IMG/VR virus record: IMGVR_UViG_3300029240_000018
Coordinates: 1 to 45,667 of that record
Reading direction: 5' to 3' (one strand)
DNA: 45,667 nt
From: a virus
The translations under genes and the position numbers were made by a program. Below are positions 181 through 45,667 of this stretch, one piece after another. The notes under the pieces are model-generated. The model searched no databases, was not told the DNA's origin, and was given only the letters and a program-made list of their open reading frames with translations. Each line of letters begins with the position of its first letter. The stretch's first letter is position 1.

Positions 181-196
181 ATAAACAATTAGAGCG

Positions 197-1642
197 ATGT
201 ATATTAAGAAATTGGAATTGTTGAATTTTCAAGTTATCAAAGAGTTCAACGCAGATTTTGAGGGTAATGTATATTTCATTACCGGGGACAATGAGTTAGG
301 CAAATCAACCCTTTTAAAAGCAATCGGCGCAATGTTGACCGGGAACCGGGACGCCGTGTTGAAAAATGGAGAGGACAAAGGGTTTGCAAAAATGGTTGTA
401 GGTAACGACGGCGAAAATTACGAGGTCGAATTAAAGTTTACCAAAGCCAACCCCCGTGGGACGTTATCCATTAAATCCCAAACAACCGGGATGCGTTCGG
501 ATAACGTTTCTATGTTGCAAAAGATTTTCGGCTACCAAGACTTTGACGCCGTGGAGTTTTCCCGTTGGAGCGAAACCGCCGAGGGACGCCGCAAACAAAT
601 TGAGGTTGTAAAGGCTTTGTTGCCGGAAAAAGTGCGCACCCGTATTGCAGAAATTGACGCCGAGGTTACGACCGTTAAGGACAAAAGAAAAGACGCCAAC
701 GCCGAGGTTAAGACGTACACAACCATTTGCGCCAACGCCGAAAAGCAATTGAAGCCCGGCGACGTCAAAACGTATGCCGAGAAAAAGGATATTACGGCGT
801 TGATGGAAGAGCAAAACGAAAATGCCCGGTTGATTGAGAAAGCGAAAACGGTACGCCAAGCCCGGCAACAAAGGATTGAACAATTGGAGGCAATCCCCGG
901 ACGAATTAAAGAGGCGGAAGAAACCCGAAAAAGTAATATTAAGGCAATCGACGACAAATTAGCCGCCGAGGAAAAAGAAGTTGCCCGGATAATTGCCGAG
1001 GCAAACGCCCGGTTGGAAAAAGCCAAAGAAGATGCGAAAGCCAACAAAAAAGCCATTGAAAACGATTATAAGGAAACGTTGCAAGTTATTGTAAACGACA
1101 AATCCGAGTTTGTGAAACGCAAAGCGAATGCCGACAAATGGTTAGAGGAATACGAAGCCAACAACCCGGAACAATTAGACACGGCGGAACAACTGAAAAA
1201 AGCCGAGGAACACAACCGTATCAATGCGTTGGTTGTGGATTACATGGCAAAGAAGAAACAAAAGGAAGCCGCCGAGAAAACCGCCCGCACGTTTGAGGAC
1301 AAATTAGGCGCATTGGCAAAGGAGCGGGAAACGCTTATTGCCACGTCCAAATTACCGATTGCCGGGCTTTCGTTCACGGACGACGGATTAGAATTAAACG
1401 GCGTGCCGTTCGTCGCCGGGAAAGTTTCAGATAGTCAAATTATGGAGGTTGCCGCCAAATTGATTATTGCAAGCAATCCGACGGTTAAGGTGTTCCGCAT
1501 TGCAAGGGGCGAAAGTTTGGGCGAAAAGCGTTTACAGGCGATTATAGACATTGCAAGGGCAAACGGTTTTCAGGGCTTTATAGAGGAAGTAAAGCGGGGA
1601 CAAACTGATTTAGTTGTTGAGGAATACACGGAAAACGAATAA
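197..1642 (+). CDS. Rad50/SbcC/RecF-type SMC-like ABC ATPase
   Basis: 481 aa with an ATG start. Walker A GDNELGKST near the N-terminus, a long K/E/A-rich coiled-coil middle, a C-terminal signature-like VSDSQ, and a hydrophobic strand ending in acidic residues. Confidence 0.7.
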   Translation: MYIKKLELLNFQVIKEFNADFEGNVYFITGDNELGKSTLLKAIGAMLTGNRDAVLKNGEDKGFAKMVVGNDGENYEVELKFTKANPRGTLSIKSQTTGMRSDNVSMLQKIFGYQDFDAVEFSRWSETAEGRRKQIEVVKALLPEKVRTRIAEIDAEVTTVKDKRKDANAEVKTYTTICANAEKQLKPGDVKTYAEKKDITALMEEQNENARLIEKAKTVRQARQQRIEQLEAIPGRIKEAEETRKSNIKAIDDKLAAEEKEVARIIAEANARLEKAKEDAKANKKAIENDYKETLQVIVNDKSEFVKRKANADKWLEEYEANNPEQLDTAEQLKKAEEHNRINALVVDYMAKKKQKEAAEKTARTFEDKLGALAKERETLIATSKLPIAGLSFTDDGLELNGVPFVAGKVSDSQIMEVAAKLIIASNPTVKVFRIARGESLGEKRLQAIIDIARANGFQGFIEEVKRGQTDLVVEEYTENE

Positions 1643-10472: not shown

Positions 10473-10484
10473 ATTTTTAGAGCG

Positions 10485-11222
10485 ATGAACAAACAAGTAT
10501 TAAGCCCGTTCGATTGCGATATGTGCGCAATGATTGAGGACATTACAAAACAAGAAATTGAGGTTACAGCGTCCGACACTTCAATACGTTTAAGTTGGGC
10601 GCAAAATGGAAGCGAGGGAAACGATAAAGCCGAGGGACAAAGGATTGAGGCGTTAAAACAGGCAATCCGGGGACGATTGGGCGACCGCCTTATTGAGTTC
10701 TTTTATGACGACGGGATGCAATCGGTTTATATGAAGTATGACCCGGAGGAATACCCGGAGGAAATGCGCACCCGATTAACCGACCCGGACGCCACAGCGG
10801 GAACCCGGTATTGTCGCACTTTGTTAGAGGTTGACGCAATCCAATTTAGACGGGACAACGTGAACGACGTTTTGAGATTTACCGGAGGCGGAACGGTTAC
10901 GACGCCACGCACCCCGGACGGCAAAGCAATGTTTTCTTTTCCCGATGGCAACGGCATATTCGTTGACGTGCCGGAAAGTTGGTACATTATCCGGGAATTG
11001 AACGGACGATTTACCGCCCGCCCGGAACGGGATTTTAAACGAGAATTTGAACCTAAAAACAATCCCGTCGAAAATACCCAAAAGGAACCCACAAACAAAG
11101 GATGCGGCGATTGTGCCAATTTCACGAATGAGGACGTAAACGGTAACGGATATTGCGAGGCGTTCAAATCTGAACAATCATGCGGAATGTGTCGTTGCCA
11201 AGAGTATAAACCTAAAAATTAA
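10485..11222 (+). CDS. Hypothetical protein with a C-terminal Cys-rich module
   Basis: 245 aa with the C-terminus CGDCANF…GNGYCEAF…CGMCRC. The start is preceded by TTAGAGCGATG. Confidence 0.55.
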   Translation: MNKQVLSPFDCDMCAMIEDITKQEIEVTASDTSIRLSWAQNGSEGNDKAEGQRIEALKQAIRGRLGDRLIEFFYDDGMQSVYMKYDPEEYPEEMRTRLTDPDATAGTRYCRTLLEVDAIQFRRDNVNDVLRFTGGGTVTTPRTPDGKAMFSFPDGNGIFVDVPESWYIIRELNGRFTARPERDFKREFEPKNNPVENTQKEPTNKGCGDCANFTNEDVNGNGYCEAFKSEQSCGMCRCQEYKPKN

Positions 11223-11496: not shown

Positions 11497-11500
11497 GCAT

Positions 11501-11529: not shown

Positions 11530-11557
11530 GCCGTTTATATACATGAGATAACAAAGG

Positions 11558-11589: not shown

Positions 11590-11700
11590 CCCCGTGGTTG
11601 AAAGATAACCATAAAGACAATAAAAGTATTGAGTTAATAACAAAAGCCTCTTAAAATGGAAATTCCCCGCAAATAACTTGTAAAGGGTAAACACGTTTTA

Positions 11701-11807
11701 AGGAGGGACGGGATAAGAAAAGACATAGAGCCGGAAAGGAACCAAAGGGGAAAAGGGACAAAGGAACCGAGGAACCAAAAGGACGGAAAAGCAAAAAGGC
11801 GCAAAGG
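11701..11807 (+). repeat. Purine-rich tract (about 84% A+G) with three GGAACC repeats, lying in the leader of the packaging operon
   Basis: I counted 17 pyrimidines in 107 nt. GGAACC is at 11738, 11763 and 11771. Confidence 0.8.
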
Positions 11808-11848
11808 TCTATTTTTTACCCCGTTTGAACATTAAAAGAGGTTGAAAA

Positions 11849-16968: not shown

Positions 16969-17455
16969 AGACGTTGCGATTATCGACGTTACGCCCGAAA
17001 ACTACATTGTCCCGGACAATGAGAAACATTTGTATCATTGCGTTATCGAAATTAAGAAATTCGACAGCGAAACGGGCAAACGGTTATCAATTCCCCGTAT
17101 TCAGAAGTTCGGCAAAAAGGGTTATGAAAATAGCATTGCCGACAATCTGAAAAAACAGGGTTACACGATTACCGTATTGCACGACCCCAACGAGTACATG
17201 AAAGCGAAAGCCGAGGCGGACGAAAAGGCAAAGGCAGAGAAAGCCAAAGCCGCCGAGGAAAAAGCCAAAGCCGATGCCAAAGCAAAAGCCGAGGCGGACG
17301 CCAAAGCCCGTGCCGAGGAAAAGGCAGCATTGAAAGCCGAGATTTTGGCAGAATTGAAAGCGGCGGGCGTTATCCCGGCGACAACTGCAAAGGAACCCAA
17401 AGCCGATGCCAAAGCAAAAGCCGAGGCGGACGCCAAAGCCGAGGGCAAAAAGTAA
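16937..17455 (+). CDS. Hypothetical head-module protein with an Ala/Lys/Glu-rich repeat tail
   Basis: 172 aa with the C-terminal half KAKAEADEKAKAEKAKAAEEKAKADAKAKAEADAKA…. Confidence 0.55.
   Translation: MRVKVSEGKTKDVAIIDVTPENYIVPDNEKHLYHCVIEIKKFDSETGKRLSIPRIQKFGKKGYENSIADNLKKQGYTITVLHDPNEYMKAKAEADEKAKAEKAKAAEEKAKADAKAKAEADAKARAEEKAALKAEILAELKAAGVIPATTAKEPKADAKAKAEADAKAEGKK
17266..17440 (+). repeat. Perfect 43-bp direct repeat (17266-17308 and 17398-17440), in frame and 132 bp apart
   Basis: caaagccgatgccaaagcaaaagccgaggcggacgccaaagcc was read at both positions. Confidence 0.9.
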
Positions 17456-21489: not shown

Positions 21490-22051
21490 AGTACCAATTA
21501 TAAAGAACCCGGAGTTATTCGACCGGGTTATTGCCAATATACAAAAAGGGTTGGCGGACGGGTTGCCGTGGCTTAACTATTCGTTCGGACGGGCGGAACG
21601 GTTGGTTAAATCCATACAGGGCAAACGGTATTATACCCCCAATATTTACGTTGGCGGCAATGAATATATGTTGATTGCCCCGGATAGTAAGATTGGGAAT
21701 TTTTCGTTTTTCGTGTTGGACGACCCGCAACAAATTGATTGGTTCCCCGGCGAACAAAACAAATATACAACGCCGTTTTCGGTTATCTTTTGGTTTGATA
21801 TGCGGACGATAACCAACGATGCCAACAACCGGAACACGGAGGCGGTCAAACAGGAAATTATGAGAGTATTAAACGGGGGTATATGGTTACGTTCGGGTTC
21901 CATGAAAATAAACAGAGTGTACGCAAAGGCGGAAAACATATTTGCCGGGTTCACTTTGGACGAAATAGACAACCAATTTTTAATGCACCCGTTCGCCGGG
22001 TTCCGGTTCGCCGGGGAATTGGGAATTGATGAAACGTGTTTAACGCAGTAA
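21482..22051 (+). CDS. Hypothetical structural protein
   Basis: 189 aa. It overlaps the upstream stop. Confidence 0.5.
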   Translation: MDRVPIIKNPELFDRVIANIQKGLADGLPWLNYSFGRAERLVKSIQGKRYYTPNIYVGGNEYMLIAPDSKIGNFSFFVLDDPQQIDWFPGEQNKYTTPFSVIFWFDMRTITNDANNRNTEAVKQEIMRVLNGGIWLRSGSMKINRVYAKAENIFAGFTLDEIDNQFLMHPFAGFRFAGELGIDETCLTQ

Positions 22052-22062
22052 ATTTATAGAGA

Positions 22063-22320
22063 ATGAAAGCATTTTTATTTTATACGGTCGTAACCGCTTT
22101 GGTCGCCGCCTTTGGTTTGACCTTGTTACGCAAATGGGGGGTCGTTGAATGGGTACAGGTTCACGGCAACGAGTTTTTCGCAAAGATGTTTAATTGCGAT
22201 TTCTGTTTGTCCTTTTGGGCGGGGTTGGCTTTGTCAATCCTATTTGTGTTTATAACCGGGAACCCGGCATTGTTGTTGGTTCCTTTTTGTTCCACTATGA
22301 TAACCCGTTATTTGCTATGA
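22063..22320 (+). CDS. Small membrane protein, DUF1360-like
   Basis: 85 aa with two or three hydrophobic helices and a CDFCLSFW motif resembling the CxxCxSxW motif of DUF1360. Confidence 0.45.
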   Translation: MKAFLFYTVVTALVAAFGLTLLRKWGVVEWVQVHGNEFFAKMFNCDFCLSFWAGLALSILFVFITGNPALLLVPFCSTMITRYLL

Positions 22321-30057: not shown

Positions 30058-33000
30058 ATGGGAAATTATGAACAATTAAAAGCCGCAATTGCCGCCGTTA
30101 TCAAACAAAACGGGAATAATGAGATAACGGGCGATTTGTTGCAAAACACGCTAACAACGATTGTTAGCAATGTGGGGAGTGAATCAACGTTTGCGGGGGT
30201 CGCAACGCCGGACACCGTGCCGGGTTCCCCCGACCAAAACGTTTTTTACATTGCCGGAACCCGTGGCGTTTATTCCAACTTTGATGGCACGGTATTAGTT
30301 AACGAAATGGTCGTTTTCACAAATGAAACGGGCGTTTGGACGTCGCAAAACATTGGTATCGCTTTAAATGGTGTGCCGAATTTGTTTTTAGGTATTGGAT
30401 ATGTTCGTAAGGACAACGGGAATATTAATACCCCGTCAACTTCTTTTCGGAGTACACCGTTTATTCCGATTGATGTAACAAAGGATTTGCAAATTAAAGC
30501 CTATGAGGGCGTAACAAATCTAATGGCGTTTTGTGCGTTCTATGATAGTGATTACAAATTTATTTCGGTATGGCAACCGGGCGGGGCGTCCGATGGAACC
30601 CGAACCGCCGTAATACCCGCCGCACAAATCCCGGCAAATGCGGTATATGTGCGTTGTTCCGGGCATGGTAACACAACGGACAATTACGTTATCCCGTTTG
30701 ATTTGTACAATGTGTTGGTAAATTTGGCGACAAAAACCAACGTTGATGCCGTAATTGCTCAAATTAACACGTATTTACAAGGTAGTTACGTTTATAGAGG
30801 TATAGTTAGCCCGGCAACAATACCGTCGTCCACGGTATCGAATGTTTTTTATATCGCCACAACGCCCGGTATTTATACCAATTTCGGCAATTTCGAGGTA
30901 ACGAACCGTTTAACCATATTTCGCAGAACAAACCCGACGGACGAATTTGTTGCAACCGAATTGGGCGTACCATTAAACGGCGTGCGTTCCCTGTTTAGAG
31001 AAATTGGGTATATTCGTAGCGATAACGGAGAGGTAAACACGGATTCGACGTCGTGGCGTTGTACGCCTTTTTTGCGTATAAACGAAAATACAGATTTCAA
31101 AATCAAAGCGTCGGTTAGTGAAGAGGGATTAACGGCGGCGTGTGCTTTCTATGATGAAAATTATAATTTCATATCTGCAATTACCATTCCGGGAACCGGG
31201 CAATTTGTTGTTGATGTTGCCGCCGCCGATATTCCCGCCAATGCCGTATATATGCGTTGTACAGGTTCAGAAAATACCGGATATGTATTGCCGTGGGATA
31301 TATTCGATTTGATTAAAGACGTAAATAGTAAAGCAAGCCAAACCGACGTAAACAACGTTTATGGCGATTTCTTTACGATACCCGATTATGGATTGAGTTA
31401 TACAACCGGAGTACCAATAAAACAAACTATTCCGGGATATACTATTACGCCGTTTATTCCATTAAACCGGGATGCCGATTTGATTGTTTCCGGTTACAGG
31501 GGCGGCGGTAATACAGCGTTGTTGTGTTTCTATGATAAGGACGAAAATTTTATATCGTCAATTTTTGAGCAAATAAGTAGCGGTTATCACAAAGATTATT
31601 TAATCAAAAAAGAAGATTTCCCGGAAAATGCGGCGTTGATACGTGCCGGGGGTAATACAAATTACGATTGTTATATTAGAAATATGACGGTTAAATATTT
31701 GTTAGATGTAATTGAGGGTAACACATGGTTAGATATGTTTTATTTTTACCCGGATAAAATATACTCAACCCGTGCCGAGGCTTACAACGATGTGCCGGGA
31801 TATATGCGCAAAGCAAATCTAACAATCAAATACCGTTTGAACGAACCCAACAACGTTGTTGTTGAAACGTCGTTAACTAATATAAATTGGGATAGTGAAA
31901 CTAATTGGAGGGGCGAACAAATGCGGGATATTATCGAGGGTAATTATTTGTACGCAATAATCGACGCCAACAACAATGTTTTATTTTCCATTGATGAATA
32001 CGGGTATTGTCGTTTTAAAAGTGATGTTACAAACTTTTTGAGCGTTGAGGAATGGGATTATCTTTACGCAATTGTTGACGCTGAAAACAATATTGTTTTC
32101 GCAATCGACAAATACGGCAATATCGTTGGAAAATCCGGGCAATCCGTGGGGTCGTCGCTTATATCTAACAATCTGAAAAATCAAAGCGATATGTTAACGA
32201 CGTTAAGCGATGTAAGGAATTACGGAGCGCAAAACGCCGAATATCTAATTGATTTGAATTTTATCGGGCGTGTGTCTGTTAAGGGTAAGATAAAAAACCC
32301 GGTAAATGATGTTAACGGTTATGTCCCCTTTGCCACGTTTGAGAACGGCGGAGCAATTGCAGCGACCCAATCAGTAAAACACGCAATACCAACACAGGCA
32401 ACGGAAACAATTTACGGGGTTACGGGTAAAGTGCCGTTTTCCTTGTTTCAATCCGGGTTTGCTTGCAACAATGCCGAAATTGTATATAACAGAGTAGCGA
32501 AAGCCGGAAGCACACACAACGGAGGGCGTAACAATCTTTGCGGCGATAAAGTAATGATGTTTTGGTTTAAAGGGTTAGACGTGATTAACAAAGCGTATGC
32601 CATAACTAACTATGAAACCGCCGACGATTATTTTATACCCGATACCGACACGTGGGGCGAAAGTACGTTGCCAATTATTGTGGAACCTGTAAACGGAGTT
32701 GCAACCATTGATTTGTTAACGCCTAATCGCTTGTATTTCGTTACCGGAAAAGTAAAGAAAGTTGTTATTGCAGATAAACGCCGGACAACCGAGGATATTA
32801 ATACAACATGGGTTAGTTCGTCACAATCTTACATTGTGGTTAATTGGGACAATCCAATTGATGCAACCCCGGTAGATACCGGAGCGTCCGGCATTGTTGT
32901 TGGTTCCGGTTCAGAAACCCCGGTTGCCGATGGTTTTAGTACCTTGCAAATGAAAGGCAATAATTATATCATTAAAAACACGGCTACACGTGCATTTAAT

Positions 33001-35363: not shown

Positions 35364-35369
35364 TTAACC

Positions 35370-35391
35370 GCCGGGGGCGCAATCCCCCGGC
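35370..35391 (+). promoter_or_regulatory. GC hairpin GCCGGGGG-cgcaat-CCCCCGGC, an exact copy of 38020-38041
   Basis: 8-bp stem read directly. A 23-nt identity is shared with the second copy. Confidence 0.6.
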
Positions 35392-35408
35392 AATAATATT
35401 TTAATGAT

Positions 35409-37258: not shown

Positions 37259-37289
37259 TTTGGTAATTAAAATAAAGGTTGTATATTTG
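37259..37289 (+). promoter_or_regulatory. Early promoter P1 (TTTGGTAAT-N-TATATTTGC)
   Basis: TTTG 37259-37262, a 19-nt spacer, then TATATTTG 37282-37289. It is collinear with 45269-45299. Confidence 0.7.
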
Positions 37290-37324: not shown

Positions 37325-37344
37325 AAAATAGAGAGCGAAACAAT

Positions 37345-37596
37345 ATGAATACTCAAAGCATTTATAACGGATTAGATTACACAACAAAAGAGATTAACCG
37401 CAATTTCAAAATCAAGGTAAACGGAATTGTAAACGGCAAAAAGGTTAATGTATTGGTTGGCGTGTCCGGTTTAATAAAGATTGTCGGCGACATTAAGTTA
37501 GTCAATCGCTTATTAAAACGTGCTTTCAATTGTTACGGAGACAAAGAGGTTTGCAAATTGCGCCGAGGCGTTAAAATCACTTTCTATTATCAGTAA
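37345..37596 (+). CDS. Early small hypothetical protein
   Basis: The internal ATG 37345 is used, because the track start at 37279 is TTG and lies inside the promoter. 83 aa. Confidence 0.55.
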   Translation: MNTQSIYNGLDYTTKEINRNFKIKVNGIVNGKKVNVLVGVSGLIKIVGDIKLVNRLLKRAFNCYGDKEVCKLRRGVKITFYYQ

Positions 37597-37604
37597 ACAA
37601 CGAC

Positions 37605-37618
37605 GGGGCGTTTTCCCC
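37605..37618 (+). promoter_or_regulatory. Variant leader hairpin GGGG-cgtttt-CCCC
   Basis: acgacggggcgttttcccc has the same loop and flank as the P1 and P3 hairpins. Confidence 0.55.
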
Positions 37619-37640
37619 AGAACAATATAAATTTTCAATC

Positions 37641-38012
37641 ATGGCAAAGTACATTTTAGTTAAGAAAGTAAAGGGAAAGAAATACGAGTACCAAGTTATT
37701 GACGTTGATAGTAAAGCGATTGTTTCAAAAAGAACGTCCGCCCGTGATTATGTGGCGTGTACCGCCGACGGTTCGTTTTATTTCGGGCGTTTGGATTTAA
37801 TCGGGAAAGGCGACCACGGCAAAAGATTGAGCCATACGGCGGCAATATTGGCAAACCCGGAGGCGGCATATAAAAAACAAGTTGCATACTTTACGCCGGA
37901 TTATCGGAGTAAATGGATAGCCGAAAACCCCGCCGAACAATGGATTGCCCGAAACGTTGAATATGCGACAAAGGAAAAAGAGAGATTAAACGCAATTGCG
38001 TATTTGCAGTAA
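37641..38012 (+). CDS. Early hypothetical protein
   Basis: 123 aa with an ATG start. Confidence 0.55.
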   Translation: MAKYILVKKVKGKKYEYQVIDVDSKAIVSKRTSARDYVACTADGSFYFGRLDLIGKGDHGKRLSHTAAILANPEAAYKKQVAYFTPDYRSKWIAENPAEQWIARNVEYATKEKERLNAIAYLQ

Positions 38013-38019
38013 TAACCAA

Positions 38020-38041
38020 GCCGGGGGCGCAATCCCCCGGC
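38020..38041 (+). promoter_or_regulatory. GC hairpin, an exact copy of 35370-35391, followed by CATAACCATTTAGAGCGATG
   Basis: Read directly. Confidence 0.6.
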
Positions 38042-38057
38042 ATAACCATTTAGAGCG

Positions 38058-38273
38058 ATGAACAAAACGAAACGTTACCGATTAAGTCAAGATATGTATA
38101 AGATAATCCAAAATGCAAACGGCGGGTTATTTTTGCTTTATACCCGGCACAATCCCGGCGATGTGTTGAACCTATTGTTAGACGGCAACGATATTGGGTT
38201 GACGTGCCGAGTTGAGAGCCGACACGACCAATATTATAAGTATTGCAAAGTAATTACGGAGGGCGTACAATGA
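38058..38273 (+). CDS. Early small hypothetical protein
   Basis: 71 aa. The start is embedded in TTAGAGCGATG. Confidence 0.55.
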   Translation: MNKTKRYRLSQDMYKIIQNANGGLFLLYTRHNPGDVLNLLLDGNDIGLTCRVESRHDQYYKYCKVITEGVQ

Positions 38274-38788
38274 GCCGTAACAGAGAGCGACAACAAGAAT
38301 TGCAGCCGGGGCGGGTCGATTACGCCCGTACCCGGTTGGAGGCGTTGGGCTATCCGGTTATGGAGGTCAACGCCACGACCTTACAATTTACTTTCCGGGG
38401 TTCCCCGGTTACATTATACCCGTATTCCGGTTGGTTTACCGGGCGCACCGTTACCGATGGACGGGGAATTAAGAACCTATTAAAACAAATACCTATGCGA
38501 TTTGCATTAAGAAAACAAGAAAAGATAAAAGCGTATTTTGAGCCAAACGGGGACGAAATATTGAACCGGATAAAAGAAAGTTTAACCCGGTATTTTTCCG
38601 CCGACCGTTCGGAGTTCCCGGAGGGGTTCCGGGATATTGAAAGCGATTATAACCAATTGCCGGGGGAACCGTACCCAACCATTGCGATAAACGACACCGG
38701 GAACCCGGAACGTATGATTGAGTTCTATGTTACCGGGAAACAATACGACGTTTACCATGTGGCATTTAAAGGATTTACAAAGGGTTAA
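38270..38788 (+). CDS. Hypothetical protein
   Basis: ATG 38270 forms an ATGA overlap with GGAGGG upstream. 172 aa. Confidence 0.55.
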   Translation: MSRNRERQQELQPGRVDYARTRLEALGYPVMEVNATTLQFTFRGSPVTLYPYSGWFTGRTVTDGRGIKNLLKQIPMRFALRKQEKIKAYFEPNGDEILNRIKESLTRYFSADRSEFPEGFRDIESDYNQLPGEPYPTIAINDTGNPERMIEFYVTGKQYDVYHVAFKGFTKG

Positions 38789-38791
38789 TAT

Positions 38792-39067
38792 ATGGGAATG
38801 ATAAAAAGGAATTGCGACAATTGCGGCAAAGAATACAACGCCGATACCCGGAATTTACGCCGAGGTTGGGGACGTTGTTGTTGTAAGAGTTGCGCCGCCC
38901 AATTGAGGGAAAAGAATAAACCCGGATATAACCCGGAACGGGTCGCCGTAAATAATGCACGCCGGAAATTTTGGGCGGATTGCCCGGAACCGGAACATTA
39001 CCCGTTGAGTTATGACGGGGCGGATTTCGACCAATGGGGGGATTGTGAATTTGGAATACATGATTAA
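38792..39067 (+). CDS. Small zinc-ribbon protein
   Basis: CDNCGKEY…GWGRCCCKSC. Confidence 0.5.
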   Translation: MGMIKRNCDNCGKEYNADTRNLRRGWGRCCCKSCAAQLREKNKPGYNPERVAVNNARRKFWADCPEPEHYPLSYDGADFDQWGDCEFGIHD

Positions 39068-39073
39068 AAAGAT

Positions 39074-39106
39074 AACCCCCGACGCAATGAAGTAACGCCG
39101 GGGGTT
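39074..39106 (+). promoter_or_regulatory. Hairpin AACCCCCG…CGGGGGTT (8-bp stem, 17-nt loop)
   Basis: Read directly. No T-run follows, so terminator function is uncertain. Confidence 0.35.
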
Positions 39107-39220
39107 GGTACGCAGTAACCGAGAGCGATGTTTTAGGTTATGCGGTGCAACAAAATTAGTGCTTTTTATCTGTATTACAAGCGTCCAACATGAACAAATA
39201 AAACTTTCAAAGGTTTTATT

Positions 39221-39251
39221 TTTGGTAATACAAATATTATTTATACATTTG
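39221..39251 (+). promoter_or_regulatory. Early promoter P2 (TTTGGTAAT-N-TACATTTGC)
   Basis: TTTG 39221-39224, a 19-nt spacer, then TACATTTG 39244-39251. Confidence 0.65.
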
Positions 39252-39267
39252 CAGAAACAAAAACCCA

Positions 39268-39283
39268 CCGGGGGAGTACCCGG
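39268..39283 (+). promoter_or_regulatory. Leader hairpin CCGGG-ggagta-CCCGG
   Basis: It occupies the same position relative to the -7 box as the P1 and P3 hairpins. Confidence 0.55.
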
Positions 39284-39290
39284 CAAAGAT

Positions 39291-39725
39291 ATGAGAATAA
39301 AAGAGAGCGATTTATTAAAAAAATTGGCGACCGATAGCGGGAAAACAGCCAACCAAGTTGCCGAAATTATCATTTCGGAATTACTCAAAAACAAAGTTAT
39401 TGAGGACACCCCGGAAAATTGGGGCGTTTCCGTTTTCGATGCAATAAACGAGGACGTAACCGAGGAACAAACCGCCAATTGTTATGCGGCTATTTCCGAG
39501 GCGTTGGGCGTGTATCTGAAACGGGTATATTTCATTGTCCCGGATTTGGATTTAATGGGTAACGACGATTGCCCGGAATGCGGCGGCGAAATGGAAGTTA
39601 CCGACGGCGAATATAAACAGACCGGAGGCGACGGATATTTGACCCCGCCGGAATATACCGCAATTTGGGAGGAAATGACGTGTACGCATTGCGGACACAA
39701 AGAGAGCAACGAACCGAGTTATTAA
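39291..39725 (+). CDS. Acidic early protein with a C-terminal zinc ribbon
   Basis: The internal ATG 39291 is used, because the track ORF start at 39105 runs through the promoter. CPECGG…CTHCGH, with many D/E residues. Confidence 0.55.
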   Translation: MRIKESDLLKKLATDSGKTANQVAEIIISELLKNKVIEDTPENWGVSVFDAINEDVTEEQTANCYAAISEALGVYLKRVYFIVPDLDLMGNDDCPECGGEMEVTDGEYKQTGGDGYLTPPEYTAIWEEMTCTHCGHKESNEPSY

Positions 39726-39743
39726 CAATAAAAGACTAAAGAA

Positions 39744-39986
39744 ATGGCAGAAATGACGAAATTAAGAGTAAACGAGGCAATCGCACGGGCGCAAACCGCC
39801 GGAATTAAAGTTTATAAAAAAGAGGTTGCCGCCCGGTTATGGGAGGGACGCACCGAAAGCGCACAACAAGTTAATATGACTAACTTATGTAACGGAACGA
39901 CTAAACAGATACGCCCGGAATGGGTCGTTATCATTTGCGAAATGTGTAATTGTACCCCTAATTATTTGTTTGGCTATGAAGAATAA
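39744..39986 (+). CDS. XRE-family helix-turn-helix regulator (Cro/Aca-like)
   Basis: 80 aa. …KEVAARLW…QVNMTNLCNGTT…ICEMCNCTPNYLFG is the typical HTH_3 ending. Confidence 0.7.
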   Translation: MAEMTKLRVNEAIARAQTAGIKVYKKEVAARLWEGRTESAQQVNMTNLCNGTTKQIRPEWVVIICEMCNCTPNYLFGYEE

Positions 39987-40188
39987 CGGGTTACAATGGT
40001 TTGAACGCATGGCGGACGTTATGTTTTCCGATAGGTTCCAAGCGAAAGCGATTATTGCGACATTTGGAACGTTGGGCGTTGTTTGTCTGATTGGCGCATT
40101 TTGGAACCCGTGGCAATTGATGTTTGCGGGTCTGTGTGCCGCAATGGTATTATGTGGATTTTCAGAATTAAAAAAGAGTAGAAAATGA
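39976..40188 (+). CDS. Small membrane protein
   Basis: ATG 39976. Two hydrophobic helices (IIATFGTLGVVCLIGAF and LMFAGLCAAMVLCGF). Confidence 0.45.
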   Translation: MKNNGLQWFERMADVMFSDRFQAKAIIATFGTLGVVCLIGAFWNPWQLMFAGLCAAMVLCGFSELKKSRK

Positions 40189-41528
40189 GAGCGAACAAAA
40201 AGAAACCGGAAAACCCGGTACAAAAGACGGTTGAAAGTTTGGGAGCCGTTCCCGCCGACCAATTCCCGGAAATTACCGAGGAACAACAACAAATAATCCC
40301 ACCGTTTGAAGCGGTCGAGGTTGAACAACCAACCGGAATATTTGAGATATTGCCGGGCATGACGGTTGAGGAAATGACGGCAATGTTTTTTGATGAAAAA
40401 ACGTTGATTGAACCCCCGTATAAGGTTTGGCAATTGAATAGTAAGGGACACCGCTATTATTACCGATATGACGACAACGGGAACCCGGAGTTTTTCCCGT
40501 CGGTTACAACGATATTGTCCCAAACGTTACCCAAAGCCCCGCACTTAATACAATGGATTGCCAACAAAGGCATTGAGGAAGCGGAACGATACAAAGGCGA
40601 ACGGGCGGCGTATGGTACGTTTATGCACGCCGCATTTGAGGAATTATTAATTAACCGGGCTTATGATTTGGACGGGTTAAAAGGCAAACTAAAAGAATAT
40701 ATTGAGGTTTACCGATTGCCGGACGATTTTATATATTATGCCGACGATTTGAAAAAGGACGTATTGGCGTTTGCTCAATTCGTATTAGATTACGACGTGC
40801 GCCCGTTGGCGGTTGAAATTGCTTTAGTGCATCCATATTACAAGTATGCCGGAATGATTGATTGCCCGTGTACCATGTTGGCAAAGATAGGCGGCGACGA
40901 ACGTATTAACGCAATCGTCGATTTTAAGAGCGGACGCAAAGGATTTTACGAGGAAAGCGAGATACAATTAGGGATGTACCGGGATATGTGGAACGTCAAT
41001 TTTGAGCAATTCCCCGTTACCCGTATTTTCAATTTCAGCCCGAAAGATTGGCGCAAACGTCCGTCGTACAATCTGAAAGAACAAACGGATAGCCCCAATA
41101 TACGGAAAATCCCGTATCTGTTAGAAATTGCAGCCATTGAGGACGAAAAGAAAGATAATACGTTTACGTCGGTTAATGGTATGGTTTTATTGGATAATGC
41201 ACCCGATTTGACGCAAAACGTAATATCCTTATCGTTGGCGGAATTGATTAAAACGAAAGCCCCAAAGGAGGCGACCCCGGACGAAAACACGGACGCCGCC
41301 GAGAAAGTCAAGGCGGATGCACCGGAACCGGAAAAGGAGCCAAAGAAAACAACCATTGTTAAACGTGCGCCCAAAAAGGCAAAGGAGGCGGAAAAGAAAG
41401 CCGCCACGGGCAAAACGACCGCAAAGCGAGGTAATACCACGGAAAAGAAAGTAAAGCCCGCAAACGAGCCTAAAAAGCCCAAAAATGAGAGTAGGAAAAA
41501 GATGTTGAACGACGACCCCGAAATTTAA
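40185..41528 (+). CDS. PD-(D/E)XK (RecB/Cas4-like) nuclease with a Lys/Ala/Pro-rich C-terminal tail
   Basis: GTFMHAAFE…, GMID…IVDFKSG…EIQLGMY (D, DxK and QxxxY motifs). The last 90 aa or so are KKxK-rich. Confidence 0.6.
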   Translation: MRANKKKPENPVQKTVESLGAVPADQFPEITEEQQQIIPPFEAVEVEQPTGIFEILPGMTVEEMTAMFFDEKTLIEPPYKVWQLNSKGHRYYYRYDDNGNPEFFPSVTTILSQTLPKAPHLIQWIANKGIEEAERYKGERAAYGTFMHAAFEELLINRAYDLDGLKGKLKEYIEVYRLPDDFIYYADDLKKDVLAFAQFVLDYDVRPLAVEIALVHPYYKYAGMIDCPCTMLAKIGGDERINAIVDFKSGRKGFYEESEIQLGMYRDMWNVNFEQFPVTRIFNFSPKDWRKRPSYNLKEQTDSPNIRKIPYLLEIAAIEDEKKDNTFTSVNGMVLLDNAPDLTQNVISLSLAELIKTKAPKEATPDENTDAAEKVKADAPEPEKEPKKTTIVKRAPKKAKEAEKKAATGKTTAKRGNTTEKKVKPANEPKKPKNESRKKMLNDDPEI

Positions 41529-41533
41529 TTATT

Positions 41534-41737
41534 ATGAATATAGTATATTACGCAGTTGATGAGAGTGGACGGGCAATTGTACATACAGAAAAACCCGAAA
41601 GATGTACACGGGATTTTGATAGCCCCGTTTGGATTGATGCGGTTGAACTATTGGGAGAAATACCGCCGGAATTATCGCATATAAATTGGGAAAATTCGCC
41701 CGTTAAATTAGAGTTAAATATAAAAATTGTTGAATGA
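41534..41737 (+). CDS. Hypothetical small protein
   Basis: 67 aa. Confidence 0.45.
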   Translation: MNIVYYAVDESGRAIVHTEKPERCTRDFDSPVWIDAVELLGEIPPELSHINWENSPVKLELNIKIVE

Positions 41738-42453
41738 TGAAAGGAAGAATAAAACGACCGGAGGCGCAACAATCCCGTTTGATATTGCCCCGTGTCGGTC
41801 AAATAAAAATCGGTATGAAAAACGCAAACGGTTATCCGCAAAGCGTTGATTACTTCATACCAACGGGAAAATATGCCGGGTTATTTACACAGGCATACGG
41901 CGAAAAGCCGCAAACAATACAAATTGTTTTCCCGGACGACGACCCGGCAAAAGTATGTAACGAGCGTTACGAATACCGGGACGACGACGGGCGATTGATT
42001 GCGGCGGGCGATGGCGACGCATTCCAAGTATGGGACGGAAAGAAATACGAAACGTTGACAACGGAGAAATACCCAAACTTAATGCAGTCAATAACGAAGC
42101 GTTACCCGAATAAAAAGAGCCGCCAACCGGATTGCGACGGTTGGGAGGTAACATTAACGCTAAACTTTATTGTTCCTTTGGTTCGTGGGGTTGCCGGGGT
42201 TTGGCAATTCGCAACAAAGGGAACGGCGTCCACAATCCCGCAAATACGGGAAACGTTCGACGGTATGTTAGCGGAACGGGGATTTTGCAAAGGCATTATC
42301 TTTGATTTGAATGTACAATTTGCCACGACCCAAAAGCCGGGCGACCGTTCCCGTTTTCCCGTCGTGTCGTTGGTTCCCAATGAGAGTGCAGACAATGTTT
42401 TGAAAGTACGTAAAGCATGGGAACCCGTTAAAAAATTGGAGGGCGGCGAATAA
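41734..42453 (+). CDS. Hypothetical protein (possible annealase/recombination partner, by position only)
   Basis: 239 aa, between the nuclease and the initiator. No motif assigned with confidence. Confidence 0.4.
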   Translation: MMKGRIKRPEAQQSRLILPRVGQIKIGMKNANGYPQSVDYFIPTGKYAGLFTQAYGEKPQTIQIVFPDDDPAKVCNERYEYRDDDGRLIAAGDGDAFQVWDGKKYETLTTEKYPNLMQSITKRYPNKKSRQPDCDGWEVTLTLNFIVPLVRGVAGVWQFATKGTASTIPQIRETFDGMLAERGFCKGIIFDLNVQFATTQKPGDRSRFPVVSLVPNESADNVLKVRKAWEPVKKLEGGE

Positions 42454-43298
42454 TGGCGGATACTATCAGACGAACCAAAAGGACGGGTAATTTTACGACC
42501 GTCCGCAACGAATATTTACAGGACGTAAATTTGAGTTGGAAAGCAAAGGGATTGATAACGTATATTATGAGTTTACCCCCGGATTGGCAATTGAATTTGT
42601 CCGATTTAAAAAATAGGTCAAAGGACGGACGGGACGCAACCGCCGCCGGATTACGTGAATTGATAACGAACGGATATTGCCAACGTTGCAAAGTTCGTGG
42701 CGACGGCGGAACGTTCGTCGGGTGTGATTACGAGGTTAGCGATATTAAAGAGTTTGAACCACAAACGGAAAACCCGTTTATGGATGCGCCACAAACGGAA
42801 AATCCGGTTGCGGTAAATCCCGAAACGGAAAAACCCGATACGGGAAAGCCGACATTAATAAATACTAATCTTACTAAAGACTCAAATACACTAAATACTA
42901 ATCCAAGTAATACGCCGCAAAATGCTTTTGCGTCTTTGTTCCCCGACGAACCAAAGGTTGAGGAACCAAAGGAGAAAAAAACGTTATTCCGCAATTCCGA
43001 CGTTTACAAAATGGTTAAATTTGAAAACGGCGTTGGCGTGGATTATTCCGAGTTTGAAAGTAAGTTTGCGACCCCGGAATTTGAAAAGGTCGATTTGGTT
43101 TATTACTTTCATTCGGTTAGCGATTGGAGCGACCAAAAGAATATGAAGCGAACTAAAAACGGTTGGTTGGCGACCGTCCGCAATTTCATACGGGGGGACG
43201 TCGAAAAGAAAAAGTTGCATTTGAAACCCGAATACAAAGCCCCAACGCACAGATTGAACGTTGCCGGGGCTATTGAGTATTTGAAAGATGATTATTAA
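42453..43298 (+). CDS. Replication initiator/replisome organiser (N-terminal winged-helix type)
   Basis: FTTVRNEYLQDVNLSWKAKGLITYIMSLPPDWQLNLSDL…GRDATAAGLRELITNGY, then PQTENP/ETEKP decapeptide repeats. Confidence 0.6.
   Translation: MADTIRRTKRTGNFTTVRNEYLQDVNLSWKAKGLITYIMSLPPDWQLNLSDLKNRSKDGRDATAAGLRELITNGYCQRCKVRGDGGTFVGCDYEVSDIKEFEPQTENPFMDAPQTENPVAVNPETEKPDTGKPTLINTNLTKDSNTLNTNPSNTPQNAFASLFPDEPKVEEPKEKKTLFRNSDVYKMVKFENGVGVDYSEFESKFATPEFEKVDLVYYFHSVSDWSDQKNMKRTKNGWLATVRNFIRGDVEKKKLHLKPEYKAPTHRLNVAGAIEYLKDDY
42759..42912 (+). repeat. Origin-like element: three 30-bp-phased iterons plus an AT-rich segment with two AAATACTAATC repeats
   Basis: CCACAAACGGAAAA(C/T)CCG at 42759 and 42789, and CCCGAAACGGAAAAACCCG at 42819. 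AAATACTAATC at 42860 and 42893. Confidence 0.55.
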
Positions 43299-44256
43299 CA
43301 TGGAAGCATTACCCGAAAAGACAAACAGATTGCCACAAACGTTGCCCGAAAAACGACAATCCGCCGCCGTTTTGCTTTATAGCGGAACGGCAAAAGCAAT
43401 TGACGTTCGCCGGGCGATGGTTGAGTTACCGGAGGTTGCCAAAGCATTAACCCCGGTTGAAAAGTATATTTTCGTGGCGTCCACAAAAAAACAGATTGCC
43501 GAGATTGACGACGAAACGTTGATTGCCAAAACCGGGCAAATGTTCCGGTTTATCGCAATGGACGTGGGGTTTATCATTCCCACGGAAAACCGGGACGATT
43601 GGACGTATATTTGTACCCGGTTGTTGGATTTACTAAAACGCTATTATTCGCAATTAACATTGTCCGAGGTTAAATTAGCGTTTGAATTGCTGATTACGGG
43701 GGAATTGGACGACTATTTGCCAAAGGATAGGGACGGGAACGCAGAACGGAAACATTACCAACAATTCAACGCCGATTATTTCGCAAAGGTATTGAACGCA
43801 TATTGCCGGAAACAAAACCAAGTTATCGGCAAAGCATATACAGCGTTACCGGAACCGAAAAAGGAGTTAAGCCCGGAGCAAATCCGGTATTATCGCAATC
43901 AATCGGTTATGACTTGTTTAATGTGTTTTTTGCGCTATAAATATACCGGGCGTTTAGTGTTTGGATTAACCGACGAAATGTTTGTTTATAATTGGTTGTT
44001 GGGCGTTCGGTTAGCGGATGAAGTGAAAGAAACCGAGGACGACCGGAAAGAAGCATATAACCGATTTTTGGCACGTGCCGCCCGTGGGTTAGTTAATGAA
44101 TTTACGGTTTACCACGTTCGTAAACAAGGAACCCAAAGCCCGGAAATTGATTATACAGCCTTTGAGGTTGCCCGGCGTAAAGAAATTAAACGGACTTTCG
44201 ACCGAATGATTAAGGACGAAATTTATATTTACCATTATTTGAAATTTGAAAAATGA
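43288..44256 (+). CDS. Hypothetical protein (replication accessory by position)
   Basis: 322 aa. An alternative start is ATG 43300. Confidence 0.5.
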   Translation: MIINMEALPEKTNRLPQTLPEKRQSAAVLLYSGTAKAIDVRRAMVELPEVAKALTPVEKYIFVASTKKQIAEIDDETLIAKTGQMFRFIAMDVGFIIPTENRDDWTYICTRLLDLLKRYYSQLTLSEVKLAFELLITGELDDYLPKDRDGNAERKHYQQFNADYFAKVLNAYCRKQNQVIGKAYTALPEPKKELSPEQIRYYRNQSVMTCLMCFLRYKYTGRLVFGLTDEMFVYNWLLGVRLADEVKETEDDRKEAYNRFLARAARGLVNEFTVYHVRKQGTQSPEIDYTAFEVARRKEIKRTFDRMIKDEIYIYHYLKFEK

Positions 44257-44807
44257 AAATAGATTGCATTATTGGAATTGACCCCGGAGCCGCCGGGGGT
44301 ATCGTGGTTTGGCGACCCAACCATAACGCAACGGCAATAAAGATGCCTAAAGACATTAACGAGATACGGGATTTTCTCAATTACTACAAAGAGATTAGCA
44401 CGCCGATTGTCTTTTTGGAAAAATTGAGCGTTCGCCCGGACGACGTAACGGTTGGGGATGCCGGGGCAAACATGGGTAAGTTGTACCGCATTCAAAAGAT
44501 GTTGCAAAACTTTGAGCATTTGAAAGCTATTATAACCGTCGCCGAAATACCATTTGTTTTGGTTAATGCTATGAAGTGGCAAAACGACCTTAAATTGCGT
44601 ATCAAAGTAAAAGGGAAAAAGGAGGAAAAGGCAGACCGCAAACGACGGTTCCGGGATATTGCCGGGAAATTATACCCGGAAATTACCCCGGCGTTGTGGA
44701 ATGCGGACGCAACGTTAATAATGCACTTTGGACGGTTCATTTTACAAAACAACCCCCGTTGGGTTTTGGAAAATTTGCCCCAACAAATGCACAACCGTTT
44801 ATTTTAA
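44253..44807 (+). CDS. RuvC-like Holliday junction resolvase
   Basis: IIGIDPGAAGG (Asp), VFLEK (Glu) and NADATLIMHFGR (C-terminal acidic/His motif). Confidence 0.7.
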   Translation: MKIDCIIGIDPGAAGGIVVWRPNHNATAIKMPKDINEIRDFLNYYKEISTPIVFLEKLSVRPDDVTVGDAGANMGKLYRIQKMLQNFEHLKAIITVAEIPFVLVNAMKWQNDLKLRIKVKGKKEEKADRKRRFRDIAGKLYPEITPALWNADATLIMHFGRFILQNNPRWVLENLPQQMHNRLF

Positions 44808-44833
44808 GCCCGTAGGGACGTTTAATTATTCAA

Positions 44834-45055
44834 ATGGTTGCTTATATGGCAGACGAAACAAAAGCCCCGCAAATCGAAAATCCCGAAAAAATAACGGCAA
44901 AAGATTTGGCGGAAATGGTAAAACAGATGCGGCACAACCAACGACGTTGCCAACGGAACCCAACCCCGGAAAAATTGGCAACGTTGGAAAGTTGGGAACG
45001 CAAAGTTGATGCGGTCGTTGCTGTATTGACCGATACACAAATGAAATTGTTTTGA
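44834..45055 (+). CDS. Hypothetical small protein
   Basis: 73 aa. Confidence 0.45.
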   Translation: MVAYMADETKAPQIENPEKITAKDLAEMVKQMRHNQRRCQRNPTPEKLATLESWERKVDAVVAVLTDTQMKLF

Positions 45056-45056
45056 T

Positions 45057-45248
45057 ATGGACGAAATGGATTATATCTATTTAGGCGACCGATTGACCCG
45101 CCCGGAATTGCGACGTATGCCGTGCCGGGCGGTTCGTCGTTCTGATGGTAAATGTATAAGAGGGCGCAACGGCAATATGTTAGTTGAGTTTGACGGCGTG
45201 GGTAAATGCGTTATTTTGGGGCGATTATTGCGGAAAATAAAAAAATAG
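45057..45248 (+). CDS. Hypothetical small basic protein
   Basis: 63 aa. Confidence 0.45.
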   Translation: MDEMDYIYLGDRLTRPELRRMPCRAVRRSDGKCIRGRNGNMLVEFDGVGKCVILGRLLRKIKK

Positions 45249-45268
45249 CCGAAAATAAAAGATAAAAG

Positions 45269-45299
45269 TTTTGGTAATATAAAAACTATACGTATATTT
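45269..45299 (+). promoter_or_regulatory. Early promoter P3 (TTTGGTAAT-N-TATATTTGC)
   Basis: TTTG 45269-45272, a 19-nt spacer, then TATATTTG 45292-45299. The upstream CGAAAATAAAAGATAAAA is identical to that of P1. Confidence 0.7.
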
Positions 45300-45319
45300 G
45301 CGGCATGATAATAACACGA

Positions 45320-45335
45320 CCGGGCGTTTTCCCGG
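45320..45335 (+). promoter_or_regulatory. Leader hairpin CCGGG-cgtttt-CCCGG (copy of 37309-37324)
   Basis: Exact 20-nt identity, acgaccgggcgttttcccgg. Confidence 0.7.
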
Positions 45336-45355
45336 TAACTCTAAAATTAAAAGAT

Positions 45356-45559
45356 ATGAGAGCGAAAACAACAATTAGCGATTTCCGGTTTGAATTTGCC
45401 GGGTACGGACATTACAAAGTAACCTACACGTCCCCCGTTACCGGGAAACAATGGACGGCAAAAACAAATGATATGCCGTTGATTGATGCGACAAAGAACG
45501 CCGACGAACCCAAACGCCGGGATTTAGAAACGCTTAAAAGAGTTTGCAAAAATGGATAA
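45356..45559 (+). CDS. Early small hypothetical protein
   Basis: The internal ATG 45356 is used, because the track start at 45305 lies just downstream of the promoter -7 box and would read through the leader hairpin. 67 aa, containing FRFEFAGYGHYKVTY. Confidence 0.55.
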   Translation: MRAKTTISDFRFEFAGYGHYKVTYTSPVTGKQWTAKTNDMPLIDATKNADEPKRRDLETLKRVCKNG

Positions 45560-45667
45560 AGACGAATTGCACGCAATGACGGCAAAGGAATTAAACGACT
45601 TATATAAGAGTTTGGAAAATTTCATTGCTGATTGTACCCGGTCAGAGGTTGACGCCAACCGGGATGC
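45552..45667 (+). CDS. 5' part of the wrap-around small ORF (continues at 2-154)
   Basis: ATG 45552 overlaps the upstream stop. The frame runs into the terminal duplication. Confidence 0.5.
   Translation, partial: MDKDELHAMTAKELNDLYKSLENFIADCTRSEVDANRD

Follow-up and report, generated by a model that had tools for sequence, protein, structure and literature searches.

In the 45,667-nt virus record IMGVR_UViG_3300029240_000018 (hereafter the window, meaning the whole stretch that was analyzed), the 8-nt motif (G/T)AGAGCGA recurs at the starts of early genes, and we consider it likely that its copies serve as common pairing sites for a trans-acting small RNA (sRNA) that the phage itself encodes. 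The candidate sRNA gene (~39146 to 39066) would be the only minus-strand transcription unit in the window. A host-type TAnnTTTG promoter would drive an ~80-nt RNA, a Rho-independent terminator would end it, and the first stem-loop would display 5'-(CA)UCGCUCU(C)-3' in a 15-nt apical loop. This loop is predicted to pair over 8-10 bp with (G/T)AGAGCGA(UG) between -13 and +14 of the start in eight early or DNA-metabolism genes, which begin at 37345 (the first early gene), 38058, 38270, 39291, 40185 (exonuclease), 45356, 197 (ATPase), and 10485 (MazG-like). The sRNA-mRNA duplex would then block 30S binding, and translation of the early genes would be turned down jointly. Bacteroidota do not use Shine-Dalgarno sequences (PMC7366714); because initiation in this phylum relies instead on an unstructured A-rich region, a duplex placed there should block the 30S subunit, and the sRNA probably represses the early genes.

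Enrichment and position of the motif

A sequence-only reading of the window had listed nine copies of (G/T)AGAGCGA, all on the + strand, and our enumeration returned the same nine copies at exactly the same coordinates. The enrichment held against dinucleotide-preserving shuffles: KAGAGCGA was observed 9 times against a shuffled mean of 0.77 and a shuffled maximum of 5, with 0/100 shuffles reaching 9, and the 7-nt core AGAGCGA identifies the same 9 sites against 1.9 expected. The placement of the motif in translation-initiation regions was likewise borne out, as eight of the nine copies occur within ~15 nt of a start codon (range, -13 to +14). Measured from the A of the nearest real ATG to the first base of the motif, the offset is -6 at 190, 10478, and 38051 (AGAGCG-ATG), -13 at 37331, +3 at 40187 and 45358 (ATG-AGAGCGA), +13 at 39303, and +14 at 38283. 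The copies at starts occupy three different reading frames. The ninth copy, at 39121, has an offset of -169, that is, 169 nt to the next start, and lies inside a 223-nt gap that is noncoding in relatives.

We rejected strand asymmetry as evidence for the motif; it is weak because all genes of the window are on the + strand and codon usage yields stronger asymmetries. The word GCCGAGG reaches 39 copies on the + strand and 0 on the - strand, with every copy in frame as GCC-GAG-G (Ala-Glu; for example, 578, 659, and 17210-17438), and it reflects codon and dipeptide usage, not a signal. The significant feature of the motif is its position.

Identity with the window is 97-98% for Parabacteroides phage PDS1, Bacteroides phage C1_85S2P, and Parabacteroides phage PD491P1, and ~82% for Alistipes phage AS73P1 and Bacteroides phage BKO1-3. 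Each of these five relatives has 8-13 copies of the core on the coding strand and none on the opposite strand; a set of 125 related loci (1.34 Mb) yielded 536 coding-strand copies of AGAGCGA and 0 in the reverse sense. An ATG that opens an open reading frame (ORF) falls within the initiation window in 68 of 77 distinct motif contexts, compared with 20% at random positions. The sequence-only reading had named conservation of motif position in relatives as a check, and orthologous genes do keep the motif at their starts, with altered spacing and frame; exonuclease orthologues, for example, carry ATG-AGAGCGA, ATGagagcaaAGAGCGA, or ATGagaacaaAGAGCGA. Because orthologues retain the motif despite changed spacing and frame, we conclude that selection acts on the nucleotides themselves.

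A candidate sRNA gene at the ninth copy

The ninth copy (39121-39128) had been counted as one more site of the motif. We instead assign it to the minus strand, where it corresponds to the complement of the motif in the loop of the candidate sRNA gene (Table 1). The 81-nt minus-strand sequence has a minimum free energy (MFE) of -30.8 kcal/mol (z = -6.2), and 0/200 shuffles fold as well. The predicted promoter box fits TAnnTTTG, the -7 consensus of Bacteroidota sigma-ABfr (PMC7366714). Across the genome, 64 matches to TAnnTTTG were found against 50 expected, and a lone match is therefore not significant within one genome; the evidence for the putative promoter is the conservation of the box across lineages. 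Our terminator scanner has a loop limit of 8 nt and missed the predicted terminator because its loop is 9 nt long. Rfam gave no match at the gathering threshold in the whole window, and only chance-level hits (E ≥ 1) were returned around the locus.

We took criteria for a "high-confidence intergenic sRNA" in Bacteroides from PMC7366714. At the sequence level, the candidate has its own intergenic promoter, a Rho-independent terminator, and an accessible conserved seed. In the PDS1 annotation, gp_11 starts at TTG and crosses the candidate sRNA gene (L001 4430-5050; window 39105-39725); the frame of this extension on the + strand is full of stops across the sRNA locus in AS73P1. The predicted sRNA transcript itself corresponds to ~4390-4475 of PDS1 (MN929097). 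The true gp_11 start is probably the ATG equivalent to window position 39291, downstream of a promoter, TACATTTG, at 39244-39251.

Predicted pairing between the candidate RNA and the motif

For each 7-mer of the candidate RNA in turn, we counted the reverse complements that fall within initiation windows (-20 to +20). The count was restricted in this way because coding composition swamps raw genome-wide counts of sRNA 7-mer complements, which we rejected as uninformative. A single sharp peak of complementarity coincides with the loop seed, at 7/8 in the window, 10/12 in AS73P1, and 4/7 in BKO1-3, compared with 0.4-0.6 expected. The only other signal was the trivial match of the U-tract to A-rich leaders. 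Sites of the form T-AGAGCGA-UG pair with CAUCGCUCU, and sites of the form G-AGAGCGA pair with UCGCUCUC; pairing with the sRNA would thus explain why the edges of the motif vary (G/T before, TG after). Each of the eight sites offers 8-10 contiguous pairs, and the eight rank first among the predicted duplexes, with energies from -14.3 to -17.0 kcal/mol.

Table 1. Predicted target sites and parts of the candidate sRNA gene in the window
Feature	Position	Strand	Sequence	Context	Duplex with sRNA (kcal/mol)
Target	190..197	+	TAGAGCGA-TG	Last A is the A of ATG; gene 197-1642 (AAA/SMC-like ATPase)	-17.0 (10 contiguous pairs)
Target	10478..10485	+	TAGAGCGA-TG	Start of gene 10485-11222 (MazG-like per PDS1 annotation)	-15.0
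Target	37331..37338	+	GAGAGCGA	6 nt 5' of ATG; gene 37345-37596	-14.8
Target	38051..38058	+	TAGAGCGA-TG	Start of gene 38058-38273; conserved in many viral contigs	-15.4
Target	38283..38290	+	GAGAGCGA	Offset +14, inside gene 38270-38788	-14.3
Target	39303..39310	+	GAGAGCGA-T	Offset +13, inside gene 39291-39725	-15.4
Target	40187..40194	+	ATG-AGAGCGA	Start of exonuclease gene 40185-41528	-14.9
Target	45358..45365	+	ATG-AGAGCGA	Start of gene 45356-45559	-14.9
Predicted -7 promoter box	39151..39158	-	TAATTTTG	Fits sigma-ABfr consensus TAnnTTTG; predicted transcription start site ~39146-39147, ~5 nt from the box	
Predicted sRNA transcript	39066..39146	-		~80 nt: stem-loop 1, linker, terminator hairpin, U-tract	
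Predicted stem-loop 1	39111..39145	-	5' arm CCGCAUAACC (39145-39136); loop UAAAACAUCGCUCUC (39135-39121); 3' arm GGUUACUGCG (39120-39111)	15-nt loop	
Predicted seed	39122..39128	-	UCGCUCU	Loop of stem-loop 1; exact complement of AGAGCGA	
Predicted Rho-independent terminator	39066..39106	-	AUCUUUUU (39073-39066)	12-bp GC stem (39106-39095 with 39085-39074), 9-nt loop	

Conservation of the candidate sRNA gene in the gut lineage

At least 119 IMG/VR contigs contain the 22-nt block TCGCTCTCGGTTACTGCGTACC, and 57 usable distinct variants were obtained from them. All 57 variants carry a TAnnTTTG box (six versions of nn) 20-23 nt 5' of the seed, and all 57 have 6-9 T within 12 nt after the second hairpin. 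The TCUEAP2 and P2559S-lineage genes described below carry a TAnnTTTG box as well. The seed is predicted to be unpaired with a mean probability of 0.97 over the 57 variants. The variants combine promoter types, loop flanks, and terminator types in reshuffled arrangements, and the terminator hairpin is swapped for unrelated hairpins with a T-tract in the AS73P1-type and BKO-type variants, in L026, and in Elizabethkingia phage TCUEAP2. Across lineages, we identified at least seven unrelated terminator hairpins, each followed by a T-tract on the RNA strand; this replacement of whole hairpins supports the assignment as a terminator.

Most substitutions in the stems are C-to-U changes that are G-U-compatible on the minus strand only (at least six types versus one contrary case). 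Two independent C-to-U changes in the 5' arm of stem-loop 1 (L026 and L066) give U-G on the minus-strand RNA, whereas they give an A-C mismatch on the + strand. The 5' arm occurs in the gut lineage as ACCGCAUAACC, ACCGCAUUACC, ACCGCAUCAACC, and GUCGCAUUACC. RNAalifold analysis of 24 variants identified mainly one-sided G-U changes and only one double-changed pair; the pattern used for the search had required a constant 3' arm in stem-loop 1.

An independent lineage in Croceibacter phage P2559S

A homologue search with the exonuclease returned only relatives with ≥80% identity, and more distant homologues were found by TBLASTN against isolated phages. One phage reached in this way was Croceibacter phage P2559S (48% protein identity), which infects a marine Flavobacteriia host. 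In an unbiased scan of all 7-mers in P2559S, CGAGAGC was the top word for concentration at starts (9/9, p ~3e-12), with 10 matches against 1.67 expected. The motif extends to aaACCGAGAGC(A/G). Compared with the gut lineage, the start-codon motif is shifted to ACCGAGAGC (9/9 at starts), and the predicted sRNA seed window is shifted as well, to GCUCUCGGU.

The only opposite-sense copy of the motif in P2559S is in the gp39-gp40 gap, within a homologous candidate sRNA gene that lies on the coding strand. The order of this gene is TATATTTG, then cuuacuccaauauuuccgaacGCUCUCGGUauaucugcg (a segment also given as GAACGCUCUCGGUAUAUCUGCG), a GC hairpin, and UUUUGUUAUUU. The cassette is thus inverted relative to the gut phages; however, its internal polarity of promoter, anti-motif, and terminator is retained. 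This arrangement is expected if the product is an RNA that carries the anti-motif, and it is hard to explain if the functional element is a sense-strand copy of the motif.

The flanks of the pairing region differ between the lineages in a matching way. In the PDS1-like RNAs of the gut lineage, the sequence is AUCGCUCUC (AUCGCUCU), with the next GGU buried in the stem, and the targets are constrained 3' of GAGAGC (G-A) and free 5' of it. In P2559S, the RNA reads AACGCUCUCGGU, and the targets are constrained 5' (A 9/10, C 6/10, C 9/10) and free 3' (A 5, G 4). Judged by this comparison, the predicted seed window and the motif change together between the gut and P2559S lineages.

When IMG/VR was scanned for variants of the seed under relaxed conditions, 170 hits resulted, of which almost all were chance matches; the full gene architecture was present in only five (L270, L345, L258, L266, and L310), which comprise P2559S with a close relative and two new lineages. 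Contigs L258/L266 and L310 keep the layout of the P2559S gene with different terminator hairpins. The RNA and the motif also occur together in TCUEAP2. Parabacteroides phage PD691P3 and Bacteroides phage B40-8 have no signature of the RNA, their starts show only generic A/T-rich words, and AGAGCGA occurs by strand 1 to 0 in PD691P3 and 2 to 2 in B40-8.

Based on these comparisons, and with somewhat less assurance than for the window itself, we lean toward a conserved, hitherto unrecognized family of trans-acting sRNAs in Bacteroidota siphoviruses of the B40-8/PDS1/P2559S type, from gut Bacteroidales to marine Flavobacteriia. Each member would control ~8-10 early genes of its own phage through a 7-9-nt loop seed that recognizes an identical motif at their start codons. 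Such an RNA would be RegA-like, would work without Hfq or Shine-Dalgarno sequences, and would keep its regulon as its gene flips strand.

Predicted target sites in individual genes

The target sites differ in how they are kept among relatives. At site 190, orthologues in BKO1-3 and AS73P1 have the motif at another spacing (AGAGCGAtaaaATG), and the site is also kept in TCUEAP2. Site 10478 is conserved in PDS1, C1_85S2P, PD491P1, and AS73P1. Gene 37345-37596, which carries site 37331, is the first after an early promoter, TATATTTG, at 37282-37289, and in relatives this site has a different spacing to the ATG (AGAGCGAaacaATG). Site 38283 has an extended match to the sRNA, GTAACaGAGAGCGA, at 13/14 positions. 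In exonuclease orthologues, the motif has moved within the first codons, with two copies in AS73P1, an offset of +10 in L086, and an offset of +9 as GAGAGCG in P2559S. Site 45358 has a promoter, TATATTTG, upstream at 45293-45300, and is conserved in AS73P1 and BKO1-3. Site 39303 is lost in the BKO1-3 orthologue (L003 reverse complement, ~33954), where GAAAGTGA replaces GAGAGCGA. AS73P1 has extra motif sites at 16287, 23481, 29466, and 30830. The loss in BKO1-3 and the extra sites in AS73P1 indicate a turnover of target sites from one lineage to another.

An 8-nt complement of the P2559S-type sRNA, CCGAGAGC-ATG, is present at 9920-9930 of the window and also in BKO1-3 (L003 reverse complement, 4852-4862). 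It falls on an internal in-frame ATG of ORF 9820-10116 and could be an alternative start, an extra target, or a coincidence.

GC hairpins are found upstream of most motif sites, as the sequence-only reading had pointed out for five of the nine copies. They also precede genes that lack the motif, and they are absent at the equivalent sites of P2559S; we therefore regard them as a separate, general feature of intergenic regions and 5' untranslated regions and not as part of the motif element. Hairpins of the CCGGG...CCCGG type with no T-tract after them occur at 155-196, 1643-1683, 5583-5624, 35364-35408, 37597-37640, 38013-38057, 39264-39287, and 45300-45330. They may be mRNA-stabilizing or processing structures.

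Alternative explanations

T4 RegA is a single protein that recognizes a short sequence over the initiation regions of many early phage mRNAs, and T4 RegB acts at ribosome-binding regions. The sequence-only reading had likened the motif to both. The likeness holds for the regulon, which consists of early and DNA-metabolism genes and is analogous to that of RegA, with a short motif over the initiation regions of several early genes, as in RegA-type operators. It does not extend to the effector: among 40 nonstructural ORFs scanned, Pfam identified no RegA-like, RegB-like, or other RNA-binding regulator domain, and PHROG hits on ten of the 40 were uninformative. It is unlikely, in our judgment, that the motif is a protein translational operator, at which a phage or host RNA-binding protein would read AGAGCGA and the orphan copy would be an operator or decoy. 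Variable spacing at initiation regions suits steric repression, many phage ORFs have no assigned function, and the requirement for the exact 7-mer is near-absolute, with no clear tolerance of wobble pairs. However, a protein operator leaves unexplained why the complement lies in a loop between a conserved promoter and terminator, why the P2559S cassette is inverted with its polarity kept in a genome that has no sense-strand orphan copy, and why a shift of the motif window accompanies the change in the RNA sequence. An unrecognized protein, a remote homologue included, may still be involved, or a chaperone may help the RNA. Less probable again is a role of the motif in RNA cleavage or processing, by a RegB-like enzyme or a host RNase, in which early mRNAs would be cut at initiation regions independently of the sRNA. 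The location of the sites resembles that of RegB action, and ORF 11849-12532 matches phrog_645, which is labeled "RNase E" (also the label in BKO1-3); however, this ORF has no Pfam domain, occupies the small-terminase position, and is annotated as a sigma factor in PDS1. No nuclease of such specificity was identified, and the inversion in P2559S and the joint shift of motif and RNA count against a cleavage signal as well. Cleavage could instead be a downstream consequence of sRNA pairing.

Action at the DNA level, as an operator, a promoter or transcription start site element, or a recombination linker between modules, is very improbable. Several motif sites do come after promoters, and the sRNA core is apparently a junction between shuffled promoter and terminator modules. 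However, the motif is tied to ATG and not to promoters, sites 10478 and 40187 are within operons, the sites at +3 to +14 are within ORFs, and the motif is not palindromic and occurs in one sense only (536 to 0). In this respect, the view of the sequence-only reading that the element works at the RNA level was upheld. At the far end of the scale, we give almost no credence to a translation enhancer that would pair with ribosomal RNA (rRNA) as a substitute for Shine-Dalgarno sequences. The motif is near start codons in phages of a phylum that lacks Shine-Dalgarno usage; however, it is found both upstream and downstream of AUG, and UCGCUCU, its 6-mers, and its G-U-tolerant forms are all absent from the 16S rRNA of nine Bacteroides, Phocaeicola, Parabacteroides, and Segatella operons, which excludes pairing with 16S rRNA. 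The 3' end of Bacteroidales 16S rRNA reads ...GGAACACCUCCUU, and the parts of 23S rRNA that we searched hold no conserved complement of the motif. It is just as implausible that the motif has no function and arose by chance, codon usage, or duplication of leader cassettes. This genome does have large strand asymmetries from codon usage, and some leaders share a longer similarity that includes the hairpin, cataaNcaNtt, and the motif. Against this stand the shuffle controls, the three reading frames, the variable spacing, the retention of the motif as flanks diverge, the gains and losses of sites between lineages, and the independent pair of motif and RNA in P2559S.

The sRNA interpretation has its own difficulties. 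The whole-molecule MFE is ambiguous, with the minus strand more stable in just 31/57 variants. Within the gut lineage, the seed is invariant, partly because the search imposed it, and strict double-compensatory changes are therefore not seen there. The 3' arm of stem-loop 1 is also invariant (22-nt block 39107-39128; loci L007-L125), again partly because of the search, next to a 5' arm that varies; the invariant arm may be an extended interaction surface or a protein-binding site. Enrichment of duplex energies over shuffled loops is weak (p ~0.11 at a cutoff of -10 kcal/mol), and motif variants that tolerate G-U pairs are enriched at starts 1.8-fold compared with 1.2-fold for nonpairable variants, which is not clearly higher. 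The contiguous pairing is short, at 7-10 bp, and the promoter and terminator of the sRNA are themselves predictions. Furthermore, Bacteroidota lack Hfq and ProQ, and the pairing of GibS, an sRNA of Bacteroides thetaiotaomicron, is longer (PMC7366714). The predicted gene architecture and its conservation, the exposed seed, the complements at gene starts, and the joint change of seed and motif all come from the sequences and their comparison, whereas expression of the sRNA, its pairing in vivo, and a repressive outcome are what we infer.

Other features of the window and its relatives

The size of the window is that of a complete siphovirus genome. The early region, with its promoters and the motif sites at 45358 and 190, runs across the ends of the window (45250-45667 / 1-200), which is consistent with a circularly permuted, complete genome. 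A 352-nt noncoding gap at 11497-11848, directly upstream of ORF 11849-12532, contains purine-rich ggaac/caaagg repeats and could be a packaging or late-regulatory region.

In PD491P1 (L005), three inserted genes encode I-HmuI-like HNH endonucleases (30205-30687, 21599-22129, and 5657-6181). One of these insertions lies directly upstream of the motif at the AAA/SMC-like gene, where it takes the place of the usual hairpin and leaves AGAGCGATG intact. The exonuclease homologues (proteins P0028-P0118) occur in two lengths, 446-448 aa and ~563 aa, and alignments to the long form cover 85% of the length of the window exonuclease, which suggests that the exonuclease is fused or extended in many contigs. 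TCUEAP2 (L246), for which a Flavobacteriales host was reported, has stretches that match gut Bacteroidales phages at ~78% nucleotide identity, in addition to the candidate sRNA gene; this likeness is unusually close for phages with hosts of different orders. Strand-specific RNA-seq data of Parabacteroides distasonis APCS2/PD with PDS1 have been published (PMC12118408).

Comparison with known systems

The sequence-only reading knew of no such element in Bacteroidota phages, and we likewise found it neither in the PDS1 papers nor in a review of phage sRNAs; a literature search for the motif strings returned only coincidences with primers. The resemblance to T4 RegA is functional only: the logic of the regulon is the same, but RegA is a protein, and the evidence here favors an RNA effector. 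The sar RNA of P22 and the OOP RNA of lambda are small phage RNAs that block translation of or destabilize a phage mRNA by pairing, as the candidate would. Both are cis-antisense RNAs fully complementary to one overlapping target, whereas the candidate locus has no gene on the opposite strand and its predicted targets are elsewhere. The CI RNA of P4 is a small phage RNA whose loop-exposed sequence pairs in trans with the P4 alpha leader. In the c4 antisense RNA of P1/P7, loop-exposed sequences pair in trans around the ribosome-binding site of a phage mRNA and block its expression, as proposed for the candidate (PMC12197685). However, c4 and CI each have a single operon as target (ant/icd or the P4 alpha leader), are processed from the transcript that also contains this target, and function in prophage immunity; the candidate has its own predicted promoter and terminator, its predicted targets are scattered along ~19 kb of early region, and the phages that carry it were isolated as lytic.

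Among host RNAs, the closest likeness is to GibS, which uses a single-stranded seed to pair with the initiation regions of its targets and represses them (PMC7366714). GibS and the candidate share a setting that is specific to the phylum, with a sigma-ABfr promoter and a Rho-independent terminator (both predicted for the candidate) and no Hfq or ProQ (PMC7366714); there is no sequence similarity between them. GibS differs in having a long unstructured 5' seed, two validated targets, and extended pairing, whereas the candidate is phage-encoded and would use a 7-9-nt seed in a hairpin loop on 8-10 targets with an identical short motif. VpdS of vibriophage VP882 and PreS of lambda are also phage-encoded, trans-acting sRNAs with several mRNA targets; unlike the candidate, they depend on Hfq, belong to temperate phages of Proteobacteria, and are known mainly for host or mixed host and phage targets. 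The phage sRNA review mentions no genome-wide identical target motif at phage gene starts for either. The candidate is set apart from GibS, c4, and VpdS/PreS by a predicted, dispersed self-regulon with one identical short motif, by its occurrence in phages that were isolated as lytic and whose host phylum has no Hfq, and by a gene orientation that flips between lineages.

Riboregulation in Bacteroidota is barely charted: a single trans-acting sRNA has been studied well in this phylum, Hfq and ProQ are absent, and Shine-Dalgarno sequences are not used, and a 2025 review of phage sRNAs includes none from Bacteroidota phages. If our interpretation is correct, the window would hold an sRNA regulon that is the first from phages infecting the dominant gut phylum, and a natural case of a short loop seed that acts on many identical sites. 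It would also provide a compact model for chaperone-independent sRNA targeting and for blocking initiation on mRNAs that lack Shine-Dalgarno sequences. For annotation, the PDS1 gene model of gp_11, drawn over the candidate sRNA gene, would be corrected, and the 8-nt tag with its sRNA may serve as an orthogonal pair for gene control in Bacteroides. For the phages themselves, such an sRNA would offer a handle on the timing of the early-to-late transition, or on persistence, in phages that coexist with their hosts over the long term.

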